In this document: one piece after another, positions 1,466 through 16,862 of the stretch
Layout: each line of letters starts with the position of its first letter
Numbering within the stretch: the first letter of the stretch is position 1
Source of the DNA: Escherichia phage T7
Strand: one strand, 5' to 3'
Sequence record: AY264776.1
Length of the DNA stretch: 37,664 bases
Position numbers and translations under genes: made by a program
The notes under the pieces: generated by a model
The model's input: only the letters and a program-made list of their open reading frames with translations
Told to the model about the DNA's origin: nothing
Databases searched by the model: none

Positions 1466-1471
1466 GAAGTA

Positions 1472-1556
1472 ATGTATATGGACTGATAGTCTTATCTTAC
1501 AGGTCATTTGCGGGTGGCCTGAATAGGTACGATTTACTAACTGAAAGAGGCACTAA
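1472..1556 (+). other. Deletion scar: first codons of gene 0.5 (atgtatatg) joined to the sequence immediately upstream of gene 1; genes 0.5, 0.6, 0.7 absent
   Basis: Gene 0.4 is followed after ~150 bp by the RNA polymerase gene; no kinase (0.7) ORF anywhere in the window. Confidence 0.8.
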
Positions 1557-4208
1557 ATGAACACGATTAACATTGCTAAGAACGACTTCTCTGACATCGA
1601 ACTGGCTGCTATCCCGTTCAACACTCTGGCTGACCATTACGGTGAGCGTTTAGCTCGCGAACAGTTGGCTCTTGAACATGAGTCTTACGAGATGGGTGAA
1701 GCACGCTTCCGCAAGATGTTTGAGCGTCAACTTAAAGCTGGTGAGGTTGCGGATAACGCTGCCGCCAAGCCTCTCATCACTACCCTACTCCCTAAGATGA
1801 TTGCACGCATCAACGACTGGTTTGAGGAAGTGAAAGCTAAGCGCGGCAAGCGTCCGACAGCCTTCCAGTTTCTGCAAGAAATCAAGCCGGAAGCCGTAGC
1901 GTACATCACCATTAAAACCACTCTGGCTTGCCTAACCAGTGCTGACAATATAACCGTTCAGGCTGTAGCAAGCGCAATCGGTCGGGCCATTGAGGACGAG
2001 GCTCGCTTCGGTCGTATCCGTGACCTTGAAGCTAAGCACTTCAAGAAAAACGTTGAGGAACAACTCAACAAGCGCGTAGGGCACGTCTACAAGAAAGCAT
2101 TTATGCAAGTTGTCGAGGCTGACATGCTCTCTAAGGGTCTACTCGGTGGCGAGGCGTGGTCTTCGTGGCATAAGGAAGACTCTATTCATGTAGGAGTACG
2201 CTGCATCGAGATGCTCATTGAGTCAACCGGAATGGTTAGCTTACACCGCCAAAATGCTGGCGTAGTAGGTCAAGACTCTGAGACTATCGAACTCGCACCT
2301 GAATACGCTGAGGCTATCGCAACCCGTGCAGGTGCGCTGGCTGGCATTTCTCCAATGTTCCAACCTTGCGTAATTCCTTCTAAGCCGTGGACTGGCATTA
2401 CTGGTGGTGGCTATTGGGCTAACGGTCGTCGTCCTCTGGCGCTGGTGCGTACTCACAGTAAGAAAGCACTGATGCGCTACGAAAACGTTTACATGCCTGA
2501 GGTGTACAAAGCGATTAACATTGCGCAAAACACCGCATGGAAAATCAACAAGAAAGTCCTAGCGGTCGCCAACGTAATTACCAAGTGGAAGCATTGTCCG
2601 GTCGAGGACATCCCTGCGATTGAGCGTGAAGAACTCCCGATGAAACCGAAAGACATCGACATGAATCCTGAGGCTCTCACCGCGTGGAAACGTGCTGCCG
2701 CTGCTGTGTACCGCAAGGACAAGGCTCGCAAATCTCGCCGTATCAACCTTGAGTTCATGCTTGAGCAAGCCAATAAGTTTGCTAACCATAAGGCCATCTG
2801 GTTCCCTTACAACATGGACTGGCGCGGTCGTGTTTACGCTGTGTCAATGTTCAACCCGCAAGGTAACGATATGACCAAAGGACTGCTTACGCTGGCGAAA
2901 GGTAAACCAATCGGTAAGGAAGGTTACTACTGGCTGAAAATCCACGGTGCAAACTGTGCGGGTGTCGATAAGGTTCCGTTCCCTGAGCGCATCAAGTTCA
3001 TTGAGGAAAACCACGAGAACATCATGGCTTGTGCTAAGTCTCCACTGGAGAACACTTGGTGGGCTGAGCAAAATTCTCCGTTCTGCTTCCTTGCGTTCTG
3101 CTTTGAGTACGCTGGAGTACAGCACCACGGCCTGAGCTATAACTGCTCCCTTCCGCTGGCGTTTGACGGGTCTTGCTCTGGCATCCAGCACTTCTCCGCG
3201 ATGCTCCGAGATGAGGTAGGTGGTCGCGCGGTTAACTTGCTTCCTAGTGAAACCGTTCAGGACATCTACGGGATTGTTGCTAAAAAAGTCAACGAGATTC
3301 TACAAGCAGACGCAATCAATGGGACTGATAACGAAGTAGTTACCGTGACCGATGAGAACACTGGTGAAATCTCTGAGAAAATCAAACTGGGCACTAAGGC
3401 ACTGGCTGGTCAATGGCTGGCTTACGGTGTTACTCGCAGTGTGACTAAGCGTTCAGTCATGACGCTGGCTTACGGGTCCAAAGAGTTCGGCTTCCGTCAA
3501 CAAGTGCTAGAAGATACCATTCAGCCAGCTATTGATTCCGGCAAGGGTCTGATGTTCACTCAGCCGAATCAGGCTGCTGGATACATGGCTAAGCTGATTT
3601 GGGAATCTGTGAGCGTGACGGTGGTAGCTGCGGTTGAAGCAATGAACTGGCTTAAGTCTGCTGCTAAGCTGCTGGCTGCTGAGGTCAAAGATAAGAAGAC
3701 TGGAGAGATTCTTCGCAAGCGTTGCGCTGTGCATTGGGTAACTCCTGATGGTTTCCCTGTGTGGCAGGAATACAAGAAGCCTATTCAGACGCGCTTGAAC
3801 CTGATGTTCCTCGGTCAGTTCCGCTTACAGCCTACCATTAATACCAACAAAGATAGCGAGATTGATGCACACAAACAGGAGTCTGGTATCGCTCCTAACT
3901 TTGTACACAGTCAAGACGGTAGCCATCTTCGTAAGACTGTAGTGTGGGCACACGAGAAGTACGGAATCGAATCTTTTGCACTGATTCACGACTCCTTCGG
4001 TACCATTCCGGCTGACGCTGCGAACCTGTGCAAAGCAGTGCGCGAAACTATGGTTGACACATATGAGTCTTGTGATGTACTGGCTGATTTCTACGACCAG
4101 TTCGCTGACCAGTTGCACGAGTCTCAATTGGACAAAATGCCAGCACTTCCGGCTAAAGGTAACTTGAACCTCCGTGACATCTTAGAGTCGGACTTCGCGT
4201 TCGCGTAA
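1557..4208 (+). CDS. 1: T7 DNA-directed RNA polymerase
   Basis: 883 aa; catalytic HDSFG motif and C-terminal FAFA present. Confidence 0.98.
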   Translation: MNTINIAKNDFSDIELAAIPFNTLADHYGERLAREQLALEHESYEMGEARFRKMFERQLKAGEVADNAAAKPLITTLLPKMIARINDWFEEVKAKRGKRPTAFQFLQEIKPEAVAYITIKTTLACLTSADNITVQAVASAIGRAIEDEARFGRIRDLEAKHFKKNVEEQLNKRVGHVYKKAFMQVVEADMLSKGLLGGEAWSSWHKEDSIHVGVRCIEMLIESTGMVSLHRQNAGVVGQDSETIELAPEYAEAIATRAGALAGISPMFQPCVIPSKPWTGITGGGYWANGRRPLALVRTHSKKALMRYENVYMPEVYKAINIAQNTAWKINKKVLAVANVITKWKHCPVEDIPAIEREELPMKPKDIDMNPEALTAWKRAAAAVYRKDKARKSRRINLEFMLEQANKFANHKAIWFPYNMDWRGRVYAVSMFNPQGNDMTKGLLTLAKGKPIGKEGYYWLKIHGANCAGVDKVPFPERIKFIEENHENIMACAKSPLENTWWAEQNSPFCFLAFCFEYAGVQHHGLSYNCSLPLAFDGSCSGIQHFSAMLRDEVGGRAVNLLPSETVQDIYGIVAKKVNEILQADAINGTDNEVVTVTDENTGEISEKIKLGTKALAGQWLAYGVTRSVTKRSVMTLAYGSKEFGFRQQVLEDTIQPAIDSGKGLMFTQPNQAAGYMAKLIWESVSVTVVAAVEAMNWLKSAAKLLAAEVKDKKTGEILRKRCAVHWVTPDGFPVWQEYKKPIQTRLNLMFLGQFRLQPTINTNKDSEIDAHKQESGIAPNFVHSQDGSHLRKTVVWAHEKYGIESFALIHDSFGTIPADAANLCKAVRETMVDTYESCDVLADFYDQFADQLHESQLDKMPALPAKGNLNLRDILESDFAFA

Positions 4209-6176: not shown

Positions 6177-6269
6177 ATGATGTACTTAATGCCATTACTC
6201 ATCGTCATTGTAGGATGCCTTGCGCTCTACTGTAGCGATGATGATGATATGCCAAATGGTCACGCTTAA
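6177..6269 (+). CDS. 1.5: T7 gene 1.5 small protein
   Basis: 30-codon ORF MMYLMPLLIVIVGCLALYCSDDDDMPNGHA; contains a GAT x4 repeat. Confidence 0.7.
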   Translation: MMYLMPLLIVIVGCLALYCSDDDDMPNGHA

Positions 6270-12239: not shown

Positions 12240-12243
12240 GAGT

Positions 12244-12283
12244 GGTATTCTCAAGGTCGCCAAAGTGGTGGCCTTCATGAATA
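12244..12283 (+). promoter_or_regulatory. RNase III site R4.7
   Basis: ggtattctcaaggtcgccaaagtggtggccttcatga hairpin. Confidence 0.55.
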
Positions 12284-12306
12284 CTATTCGACTCACTATA
12301 GGAGAT
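12284..12306 (+). promoter_or_regulatory. T7 promoter phi4.7
   Basis: ctattcgactcactataggagat. Confidence 0.85.
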
Positions 12307-12312
12307 ATTACC

Positions 12313-12720
12313 ATGCGTGACCCTAAAGTTATCCAAGCAGAAATCGCTAAACTGGAAGTTGAACTGGAGGACGTTAAGTACCATGAAGCTAAGACTCGCT
12401 CCGCTGTTCACATCTTGAAAAACTTAGGCTGGACTTGGACAAGACAGACTGGCTGAAAGAAACCAGAAGTTACCAAGTTGAGTCATAAGGTGTTCGATAA
12501 GGACACTATGACCCACATCAAGGCTGGTGATTGGGTTAAGGTTGACATGGGAATTGTTGGTGGATACGACTACGTCCGCTCAGTTAGTGACAAATATGCA
12601 CAAATGTCATACATCACAGATGTTACTCCACGCGGTGCAATCGTTACCGATAAGACCAACATGATTCACACAGATTTCTTGACAGTTGTTTCATATGAAG
12701 AGATTGTTAAGTCACGATAA
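12313..12720 (+). pseudogene. 4.7: Gene 4.7 interrupted by an in-frame opal (TGA) codon at 12454-12456
   Basis: Two same-frame ORFs (12313..12456 and 12478..12720) together span 408 nt, the length of T7 gene 4.7 (135 aa); junction reads ...TRQTG*KKPEVTKLSHK... Confidence 0.8.
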
Positions 12721-12738: not shown

Positions 12739-14853
12739 ATGATCGTTTCTGACATCGAAGCTAACGCCCTCTTAGAGAGCGTCACTAAGTGCCACTGCGG
12801 GGTTATCTACGACTACTCCACCGCTGAGTACGTAAGCTACCGTCCGAGTGACTTCGGTGCGTATCTGGATGCGCTGGAAGCCGAGGTTGCACGAGGCGGT
12901 CTTATTGTGTTCCACAACGGTCACAAGTATGACGTTCCTGCATTGACCAAACTGGCAAAGTTGCAATTGAACCGAGAGTTCCACCTTCCTCGTGAGAACT
13001 GTATTGACACCCTTGTGTTGTCACGTTTGATTCATTCCAACCTCAAGGACACCGATATGAGTCTTCTGCGTTCCGGCAAATTGCCCGGAAAACGCTTTGG
13101 GTCTCACACTTTGGAGGCGTGGGGTTATCGCTTAGGCGAGATGAAGGGTGAATACAAAGACGACTTTAAGCGTATGCTTGAAGAGCAGGGTGAAGAATAC
13201 GTTGACGGAATGGAGTGGTGGAACTTCAACGAAGAGATGATGGACTATAACGTTCAGGACGTTGTGGTAACTAAAGCTCTTCTTGAGAAGCTACTCTCTG
13301 ACAAACATTACTTCCCTCCTGAGATTGACTTTACGGACATAGGATACACTACGTTCTGGTCAGAATCCCTTGAGGCCGTTGACATTGAACATCGTGCTGC
13401 ATGGATGCTCGCTAAACAAGAGCGCAACGGGTTCCCGTTTGACACAAAAGCAATCGAAGAGTTGTACGTAGAGTTAGCTTCTCGCCGCTCTGAGTTGCTC
13501 CGTAAATTGACCGAAACGTTCGGCTCGTGGTATCAGCCTAAAGGTGGCACTGAGATGTTCTGCCATCCGCGAACAGATAAGCCACTACCTAAATACCCTC
13601 GCATTAAGACACCTAAAGTTGGTGGTATCTTTAAGAAGCCTAAGAACAAGGCACAGCGAGAAGGCCGTGAGCCTTGCGAACTTGATACCCGCGAGTACGT
13701 TGCTGGTGCTCCTTATACCCCAGTTGAACATGTTGTGTTTAACCCTTCGTCTCGTGACCACATTCAGAAGAAACTCCAAGAGGCTGGGTGGGTCCCGACC
13801 AAGTACACCGATAAGGGTGCTCCTGTGGTGGACGATGAGGTACTCGAAGGAGTACGTGTAGATGACCCTGAGAAGCAAGCCGCTATCGACCTCATTAAAG
13901 AGTACTTGATGATTCAGAAGCGAATCGGACAGTCTGCTGAGGGAGACAAAGCATGGCTTCGTTATGTTGCTGAGGATGGTAAGATTCATGGTTCTGTTAA
14001 CCCTAATGGAGCAGTTACGGGTCGTGCGACCCATGCGTTCCCAAACCTTGCGCAAATTCCGAGTGTACGTTCTCCTTATGGAGAGCAGTGTCGCGCTGCT
14101 TTTGGCGCTGAGCACCATTTGGATGGGATAACTGGTAAGCCTTGGGTTCAGGCTGGCATCGACGCATCCGGTCTTGAGCTACGCTGCTTGGCTCACTTCA
14201 TGGCTCGCTTTGATAACGGCGAGTACGCTCACGAGATTCTTAACGGCGACATCCACACTAAGAACCAGATAGCTGCTGAACTACCTACCCGAGATAACGC
14301 TAAGACATTCATCTATGGGTTCCTCTATGGTGCTGGTGATGAGAAGATTGGACAGATTGTTGGTGCTGGTAAAGAGCGCGGTAAGGAACTCAAGAAGAAA
14401 TTCCTTAAGAACACCCCCGCGATTGCAGCACTCCGCGAGTCTATCCAACAGACACTTGTCGAGTCCTTTCAATGGGTAGCTGGTGAGCAACAAGTCAAGT
14501 GGAAACGCCGCTGGATTAAAGGTCTGGATGGTCGTAAGATACACGTTCGTAGTCCTCACGCTGCCTTGAATACCCTACTGCAATCTGCTGGTGCTCTCAT
14601 CTGCAAACTGTGGATTATCAAGACCGAAGAGATGCTCGTAGAGAAAGGCTTGAAGCATGGCTGGGATGGGGACTTTGCGTACATGGCATGGGTACATGAT
14701 GAAATCCAAGTAGGCTGCCGTACCGAAGAGATTGCTCAGGTGGTCATTGAGACCGCACAAGAAGCGATGCGCTGGGTTGGAGATCACTGGAACTTCCGGT
14801 GTCTTCTGGATACCGAAGGTAAGATGGGTCTTAATTGGGCGATTTGCCACTGA
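12739..14853 (+). CDS. 5: T7 DNA polymerase
   Basis: 704 aa; exonuclease D5/E7 motif, polymerase motifs DASGLELR and HDE intact. Confidence 0.98.
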
Positions 14854-14868
14854 TACAGGAGGCTACTC

Positions 14869-15249
14869 ATGAACGAAAGACACTTAACAGGTGCTGCTTC
14901 TGAAATGCTAGTAGCCTACAAATTTACCAAAGCTGGGTACACTGTCTATTACTCTATGCTGACTCAGAGTAAAGAGGACTTGGTTGTATGTAAGGATGGT
15001 AAATTTAGTAAGGTTCAGGTTAAAACAGCTACAACGGTTCAAACCAACACAGGAGATGCCAAGCAGGTTAGGCTAGGTGAATGCGGTAGGTCCGAATATA
15101 AGGATGGAGACTTTGACATTCTTGCAGTTGTGGTTGACGAAGATGTGCTTATTTTCACATGGGACGAAGTAAAAGGTAAGACATCCATGTGTGTCGGCAA
15201 GAGAAACAAAGGCATAAAACTAGAGGAGAAACTTAATGGCACTTCTTGA
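14869..15249 (+). CDS. 5.3: Gene 5.3 fused in frame to the last ~8-9 codons of gene 5.9 (deletion of 5.5, 5.7 and most of 5.9)
   Basis: 126-aa ORF starting MNERHLTGAASEMLVAYKF (gp5.3) and ending ...EEKLNGTS (gp5.9 C-terminus), overlapping the gene 6 start as 5.9 does in T7. Confidence 0.75.
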   Translation: MNERHLTGAASEMLVAYKFTKAGYTVYYSMLTQSKEDLVVCKDGKFSKVQVKTATTVQTNTGDAKQVRLGECGRSEYKDGDFDILAVVVDEDVLIFTWDEVKGKTSMCVGKRNKGIKLEEKLNGTS

Positions 15250-16138
15250 CCTTAAACAATTCTATGAGTTACGTGAAGGCTGCGACGACAAGAGTATCCT
15301 TGTGATGGACGGCGACTGGCTGGTCTTCCAAGCTATGAGTGCTGCTGAGTTTGATGCCTCTTGGGAGGAAGAGATTTGGCACCGATGCTGTGACCACGCT
15401 AAGGCCCGTCAGATTCTTGAGGATTCCATTAAGTCCTACGAGACCCGTAAGAAGGCTTGGGCAGGTGCTCCAATTGTCCTTGCGTTCACCGATAGTGTTA
15501 ACTGGCGTAAAGAACTGGTTGACCCGAACTATAAGACTAACCGTAAGGCCGTGAAGAAACCTGTAGGGTACTTTGAGTTCCTTGATGCTCTCTTTGAGCG
15601 CGAAGAGTTCTATTGCATCCGTGAGCCTATGCTTGAGGGTGATGACGTTATGGGAGTTATTGCTTCCAATCCGTCTGCCTTCGGTGCTCGTAAGGCTGTA
15701 ATCATCTCTTGCGATAAGGACTTTAAGACCATTCCTAACTGTGACTTCCTGTGGTGTACCACTGGTAACATCCTGATTCAGACCGAAGAGTCCGCTGACT
15801 GGTGGCACCTTTTCCAGACCATCAAGGGTGACATCACTGATGGTTACTCAGGGATTGCTGGATGGGGTGATACCGCCGAGGACTTCTTGAATAACCCGTT
15901 CATAATCGAGCCTAAAACGTCTGTGCTTAAGTCCGGTAAGAACAAAGGCCAAGAGGTTACTAAATGGATTAAACGCGATCCTGAGCCTCATGAGACGCTT
16001 TGGGACTGCATTAAGTCCATTGGCGCGAAGGCTGGTATGACCGAAGAGGATATTATCAAGCAGGGCCAAATGGCTCGAATTCTACGGTTCAACGAGTACA
16101 ACTTTATTGACAAGGAGATTTACCTGTGGAGACCGTAG
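15236..16138 (+). CDS. 6: 5'-3' exonuclease gp6
   Basis: 300 aa MALLDLKQFYELREG... Confidence 0.97.
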   Translation: MALLDLKQFYELREGCDDKSILVMDGDWLVFQAMSAAEFDASWEEEIWHRCCDHAKARQILEDSIKSYETRKKAWAGAPIVLAFTDSVNWRKELVDPNYKTNRKAVKKPVGYFEFLDALFEREEFYCIREPMLEGDDVMGVIASNPSAFGARKAVIISCDKDFKTIPNCDFLWCTTGNILIQTEESADWWHLFQTIKGDITDGYSGIAGWGDTAEDFLNNPFIIEPKTSVLKSGKNKGQEVTKWIKRDPEPHETLWDCIKSIGAKAGMTEEDIIKQGQMARILRFNEYNFIDKEIYLWRP

Positions 16139-16239
16139 CGTATATTGGTCTGGGTCTTTGTGTTCTCGGAGTGTGCCTCATTTCGTGGGGCCTTTGGGAC
16201 TTAGTCAGAATAATCAAGTCGTTACACGACACTAAGTGA
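16126..16239 (+). CDS. 6.3: T7 gene 6.3 small protein (GTG start)
   Basis: 37-codon ORF overlapping the end of gene 6, hydrophobic. Confidence 0.6.
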   Translation: METVAYIGLGLCVLGVCLISWGLWDLVRIIKSLHDTK

Positions 16240-16259
16240 TAAACTCAAGGTCCCTAAAT

Positions 16260-16282
16260 TAATACGACTCACTATAGGGAGA
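16260..16282 (+). promoter_or_regulatory. T7 promoter phi6.5 (consensus class III)
   Basis: taatacgactcactatagggaga, inside an RNase III-type hairpin (R6.5). Confidence 0.95.
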
Positions 16283-16336
16283 TAGGGGCCTTTACGATTA
16301 TTACTTTAAGATTTAACTCTAAGAGGAATCTTTATT

Positions 16337-16591
16337 ATGTTAACACCTATTAACCAATTACTTAAGAACCCTAACGATATTCCAGATGTACCTCGTGCAA
16401 CCGCTGAGTATCTACAGGTTCGATTCAACTATGCGTACCTCGAAGCGTCTGGTCATATAGGACTTATGCGTGCTAATGATTGTAGTGAGGCCCACATCTT
16501 GGGTTTCATTCAGGGCCTACAATATGCCTCTAACGTCATTGACGAGATTGAGTTACGCAAGGAACAACTAAGAAATGATGAGGAGAATTGA
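16337..16591 (+). CDS. 6.5: T7 gene 6.5 protein
   Basis: 84-aa ORF. Confidence 0.85.
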
Positions 16592-16595
16592 CACT

Positions 16596-16862
16596 ATGTG
16601 TTTCTCACCGAAAATTAAAACTCCGAAGATGGATACCAATCAGATTCGAGCCGTTGAGCCAACGCCTCTGACCCAAGAAGTGTCAAGCGTGGAGTTCGGT
16701 GGGTCTTCTGATGAGACGGATACCGAGGGCACCGAAGTGTCTGGACGCAAAGGCCTCAAGGTCGAACGTGATGATTCCGTAACGAAGTCTAAAGCCAGCG
16801 GCAATGGCTCCGCTCGTATGAAATCTTCCATCCGTAAGTCCGCATTTGGAGGTAAGAAGTGA
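16596..16862 (+). CDS. 6.7: Gene 6.7 virion protein
   Basis: 88 aa from ATG 16596 (MCFSPKIKTPKMDTNQIRAV...). Confidence 0.85.
   Translation: MCFSPKIKTPKMDTNQIRAVEPTPLTQEVSSVEFGGSSDETDTEGTEVSGRKGLKVERDDSVTKSKASGNGSARMKSSIRKSAFGGKK

Follow-up and report, generated by a model that had tools for sequence, protein, structure and literature searches.

In the 37,664-nt DNA of phage T7 analysed here (AY264776.1, referred to below as the window), two open reading frames in the same frame were separated only by a TGA codon at the place where T7 carries the 135-residue gene 4.7. This raised the question of whether the locus holds two small genes, one gene whose stop codon is read through, a sequencing error, or a gene broken by mutation. 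The window (1-37664) comprised nearly the whole T7 genome; it began within the left terminal repeat and ended within the right.

A split frame at the position of gene 4.7

The first-pass annotation, made from the letters alone, had proposed that the two frames were gene 4.7 divided by an in-frame opal codon, and alignment bore this out. Window positions 12313-12720 were colinear base for base with T7 gene 4.7 over 408 nt (135 codons and a stop), and no gaps were needed against either V01146 (13927-14334) or AY264774 (13928-14335), with 97.3% identity over all 408 bases in both cases. A megablast search of the phage collection with this stretch matched 155 phage records; V01146, NC_001604 and dozens of further T7 records matched at 97.3% over 408 bases, at annotated gene 4.7, and AY264775.1 was the sole record that matched at an identity of at least 99% (100%). 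The gene order at the locus was 4.3, 4.5, phi4.7, 4.7, 5, the same as in T7, with the stretch following gene 4.5 and phi4.7 directly and preceding the DNA polymerase gene, gene 5. The wild-type gp4.7 matched phrog_4023 at E=3.8e-62. Compared with the wild-type gene (V01146; PHROG 4023), the window copy had the same position and length but carried a stop at Trp48 and eight missense changes. With full-length homology and an interrupted frame, the window copy is a disrupted allele, a pseudogene, and no functional member of the family (PHROG 4023 / PF26857).

The frame was open from ATG 12313 up to the TGA, and past it to TAA 12718-12720; codons 46-50 read ACT GGC TGA AAG AAA. The same-frame split thus stood as described, but the starts in the mechanical list of open reading frames did not: the upstream frame began there at an out-of-context ATG (12184) and the downstream frame at a TTG (12478), whereas the real start of gene 4.7 is ATG 12313, which sits 8 nt past the GGAG of the Shine-Dalgarno sequence and behind the phi4.7 promoter (Table 1). 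The promoter and the Shine-Dalgarno sequence were as in the wild type, since the only difference from T7+ within 12240-12312 was at 12249, outside both. With promoter and ribosome-binding site intact, gene 4.7 should still be transcribed. The TGA was the sole internal in-frame stop among the 44 mapped genes of the window, and the split frame is therefore not a chance pattern. In an annotation the two frames should be entered as one pseudogene, not as two genes.

Table 1. Features of the gene 4.7 locus (window coordinates)
Feature	Position	Strand	Remarks
Promoter phi4.7, T7 class II	12284..12306	+	Transcription start G 12301; phi4.7 of V01146 at 13915 corresponds to window 12301
GGAG, Shine-Dalgarno for gene 4.7	12301-12304	+	Part of the promoter sequence CGACTCACTATAGGAG
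Gene 4.7, 5' part: 47 sense codons up to and including the premature opal stop	12313..12456	+	A16V and one synonymous change
Opal codon TGA replacing Trp48 (TGG)	12454..12456	+	Mutated base 12456, G>A, 5'-G neighbour; context CUGGCUGAAAG
Gene 4.7, untranslated remnant: codons 49-135 and TAA	12457..12720	+	Eight further G:C>A:T changes, seven missense

A stop codon that replaces a tryptophan codon would also be expected if TGA were read as Trp throughout the genome. The stop-codon usage refuted such an alternative code: 12 of the 44 genes, including the essential genes 4A, 5, 9 and 19, ended at TGA at the positions where they end in wild-type T7, no mapped gene had an internal TGA apart from this one, and T7 infects E. 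coli. We give this reading no weight.

The opal codon in the isolate K lineage

A codon-by-codon comparison showed that codon 48 was TGG (Trp48) in T7+ (AY264774) and V01146, as the first-pass annotation had predicted, whereas the window and isolate K both had TGA. The difference was due to one G>A change, at 12456 (T7 position 14070 in V01146 numbering); a stop in reference T7 as well, which would have refuted the proposal, was absent from both wild-type references. Besides the opal change, gene 4.7 contained ten substitutions relative to AY264774, and all 11 were G>A or C>T. Eight were missense (A16V, V81I, G86D, G93D, V98M, G103D, A112T, and G121D) and two were synonymous (K36 and L56). A16V affected a position occupied by Ala in 64 of 67 homologues. 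The opal change and all four Gly>Asp changes were located at 5'-GG sites.

The same pattern extended over the genome. Among the 422 differences between the window and its wild-type parent AY264774 (T7+), 184 were G>A and 183 were C>T, 367 in total. The per-site mutation rate depended on the 5' neighbour of the G: 3.7% for GG, 2.7% for AG, 1.0% for CG, and 0.67% for TG. The opal change, a G:C>A:T transition at a 5'-GG site, agreed with this spectrum both in type and in its 5'-purine neighbour. Nearly exclusive G:C>A:T changes with a preference for a 5' purine (5'-RG) are the signature of N-methyl-N'-nitro-N-nitrosoguanidine (MNNG). The study of Bull et al. 2003 was reportedly a nitrosoguanidine mutation-accumulation experiment, and the isolate K lineage is presumably the lineage of that experiment. 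The spectrum and this study together point to a mutagen of the nitrosoguanidine type as the probable cause. PMC2680503 identifies AY264774 as the T7+ of the laboratory behind Bull et al. 2003, and PMC8923235 cites the “hundreds of mutations” paper. Beyond what the first-pass annotation had seen, the stop belonged to a set of about 367 transitions of mutagen type in a laboratory-mutagenised lineage, and it lay in a gene that the depositors had already annotated as disrupted.

That annotation was found in AY264775.1, “Enterobacteria phage T7 isolate K, complete genome”, where the gene 4.7 stretch (13083-13490) was entered not as a CDS but under misc_feature, with the label “similar to gene 4.7”; the depositors were thus aware that the gene was disrupted. 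In gene 4.7 there were zero differences between the window and isolate K; all 408 bases agreed, among them the codon-48 TGA and the remaining ten substitutions, and the genome-wide G:C>A:T background was shared as well. The two genomes were 99.9% identical, but the window had two extra deletions (K 1481-2235 and K about 16005-16641) and carried 22 further substitutions of a different spectrum. The window is a later, further-deleted descendant of isolate K; AY264776 is called “the K155 strain of the T7 phage” in PMC7694805.

These records also bore on the possibility that the A at 12456 was a miscall and that the phage truly had TGG. The quality of the window sequence was imperfect, as it contained six ambiguous bases (10477, 10633, 20375, 25678, 35600, and 35660, two of which fell inside the primase/helicase gene 4A). 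However, the same TGA was present in the separately deposited AY264775.1, whose own ambiguous bases (7, 6176, 16256, 16439, and 26654) differed from those of the window, which suggested independent determinations. In addition, the depositors had deliberately demoted the gene to a misc_feature, and the change fitted the other 366 transitions in type and 5'-GG context. A sequencing or assembly error is thus very improbable, and the resequencing proposed by the first-pass annotation is largely answered by the second record. The nonsense allele is real; it had been deposited and flagged before and is ordinary.

Between the window and isolate K there were 22 clean substitutions (for example at 4030, 11666, 12791, 17349, 20072, 25636, 32711, and 34203), among them nine A:T>C:G transversions, three G>A and no C>T. 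Two sites had reverted to wild type (280 and 338), and two were in a third state (21212 and 26502). Such a spectrum is suggestive of a later phase without mutagen, which was possibly compensatory, or of another mutational process. Compared with T7+, gene 1.5 of the window had also gained 3 nt in frame (6237-6239), and gene 1.7 had lost 3 nt in frame (after 6585).

Taken together, these results make it highly probable that Trp48 was changed from TGG to TGA as one of several hundred transitions of the lineage, with loss of function in non-essential gene 4.7. The opal codon would have arisen among the several hundred G:C>A:T transitions of the laboratory T7 lineage represented by isolate K. Translation would end within the conserved N-terminal part, and a peptide of 47 residues would still be made. 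Since gp4.7 is not required in laboratory culture, the knockout would have been tolerated; the downstream remnant would then have gathered mutations without constraint, and the stop would have stayed unreverted during later propagation. Observed directly were the base change, its identity with isolate K, the mutation spectrum, the invariance of W48 and the downstream mutation excess; what we infer is the identity of the mutagen, the loss of gp4.7 function, the order of these events and the lack of any polar effect on gene 5.

The distribution of mutations agreed with such an order. Gene 4.7 topped the 45 genes for mutation excess, with 11 transitions against 3.57 expected (P=0.0012), an excess that became borderline once all 45 genes were corrected for (Bonferroni P=0.054). 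It was limited to the codons past the stop, where eight changes were observed against 2.13 expected (Poisson P=0.0016), whereas upstream there were two against 1.4. The downstream excess fits relaxed constraint or drift in a dead frame, but it could instead reflect a weak C-terminal constraint older than the stop. The order of events is thus put forward with reserve, because homologues of gp4.7 are in any case poorly conserved over their C-terminal half.

Predicted truncation of gp4.7 and possible leakiness of the stop

An alignment of 67 homologues, drawn from 104 database hits, showed that W48 was invariant (67/67). In an AlphaFold model of homologue P0004, which is 93% identical (m9badafddaea7; mean pLDDT 82.6), the predicted fold consisted of a long helix (residues 4-37), a β-hairpin (40-50), a low-confidence linker and a small β-barrel (74-126), and W48 was placed in the second strand of the hairpin. 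According to this model, the truncation would remove half of the hairpin, the nearly invariant block of residues 61-73 and the whole β-barrel. Searches for a function of gp4.7 gave little: Pfam returned only a sub-threshold match to HicA_toxin (E=0.074, residues 31-61), PHROGs placed the protein in a family of unknown function (PHROG 4023), and a PDB profile search returned only a non-significant match to a KOW-like uL24 (E=2.6). A structure search with the model found weak matches to generic small β-barrels (KOW, SH3, and Tudor-like), none at E<=0.001. The predicted barrel was KOW/SH3-like; the barrel and the HicA_toxin-like match serve as leads only. Truncated homologues were also present in public assemblies of T7-like phages (P0045, P0047, and P0075, with 80, 92, and 74 residues, respectively). 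All three kept W48 and the N-terminal part, so these natural disruptions fall further downstream than the stop in the window.

UGA is the leakiest stop codon of E. coli, and the near-cognate tRNA-Trp would insert the wild-type residue at this very position. A leaky stop, with readthrough by tRNA-Trp or a restart downstream, could on these grounds still yield useful gp4.7 or a C-terminal fragment; for a restart, an in-frame ATG (M66, 12508) followed an AAGGA, and a C>T change had produced a new TTG (12478). Several results argued against it. No stop occurred at codon 48 in any of the 67 homologues, and in IMG/VR the TGA allele had no exact match while the TGG allele was found in six contigs; this is therefore no conserved recoding site. 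RNA folding of 12440-12520 gave no stable structure at the UGA or directly behind it; the weak stem predicted around it was missing from the centroid. One stable hairpin alone was predicted, at about 12479-12515; it was located about 25 nt 3' of the UGA and would sequester both the AAGGA and the ATG of M66. The seven missense changes of the remnant, including the four Gly>Asp, are what would be expected if selection had gone. Useful product from a leaky stop or a restart is accordingly very improbable; any readthrough would be of the generic, percent-level kind, and no result pointed to its being of importance. Programmed readthrough or selenocysteine insertion was rejected, as the stop was unconserved and no stable structure lay directly 3' of it. 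The 81-nt fold containing the 12479-12515 hairpin had a z-score of -2.2, a weak signal.

A related reading is that the leaky opal codon keeps a low but relevant level of full-length gp4.7, or that the 47-residue fragment, a helix plus hairpin, stays active. We regard it as similarly improbable; if true, it would account for the survival of the remnant when the 5.7 and 5.9 pseudogenes of isolate K were lost by deletion.

Nonsense alleles, deletions and comparison with other T7 lines

The number of nonsense alleles to be expected was calculated by applying the context-specific rates to all sites at which G>A or C>T makes a stop. About 12.3 nonsense changes were expected without selection, and isolate K has three (P of three or fewer = 0.002), which implied that nonsense changes were purged except in three small genes. 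All three were Trp>stop (4.7 W48*, 5.7 W52*, and 5.9 W13*), and the window keeps one of them. The 5.7 and 5.9 alleles of isolate K resembled that of gene 4.7 in lying in small genes and in being annotated “similar to”, but both genes were deleted from the window, whereas the gene 4.7 remnant was retained. The value of the present allele is modest: it illustrates that of about 12 nonsense changes expected among about 370 transitions three survived, all in small genes, and it identifies gene 4.7 as a gene that the phage did not need under the conditions of passage.

At 14869-15249 (junction about 15225-15235), the window lacked roughly 640 bp that T7+ and isolate K both contain; the deletion lay between two copies of an AACTA-AGGAGAAA-like sequence. 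It took out genes 5.5 and 5.7 and most of 5.9, and thus the two other Trp>stop pseudogenes of isolate K, and it fused gene 5.3 to the last eight codons of 5.9 in a 126-aa open reading frame; the start of gene 6 was kept. In the early region, a second junction at window 1471-1480 marked the loss of T7+ about 1505-3085 (genes 0.5-0.7), a larger deletion than that of isolate K (T7+ about 1759-2568). The flanking alignments overlapped there by about 10 nt, which suggests microhomology at the junction.

The stop in gene 4.7 was unreverted in the window, the descendant of isolate K, which suggests that restoring gp4.7 brought no meaningful advantage. According to PMC8923235, genes 4.5-4.7 are non-essential, and deletions of these whole genes were fixed repeatedly in evolved T7 lines. 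The heat-adapted lines described there resembled the lineage of the window in that the loss of gp4.7 was tolerated during laboratory propagation. They differed in the kind of lesion, which was a deletion of 769-1019 bp between short repeats and not a point nonsense change as at Trp48.
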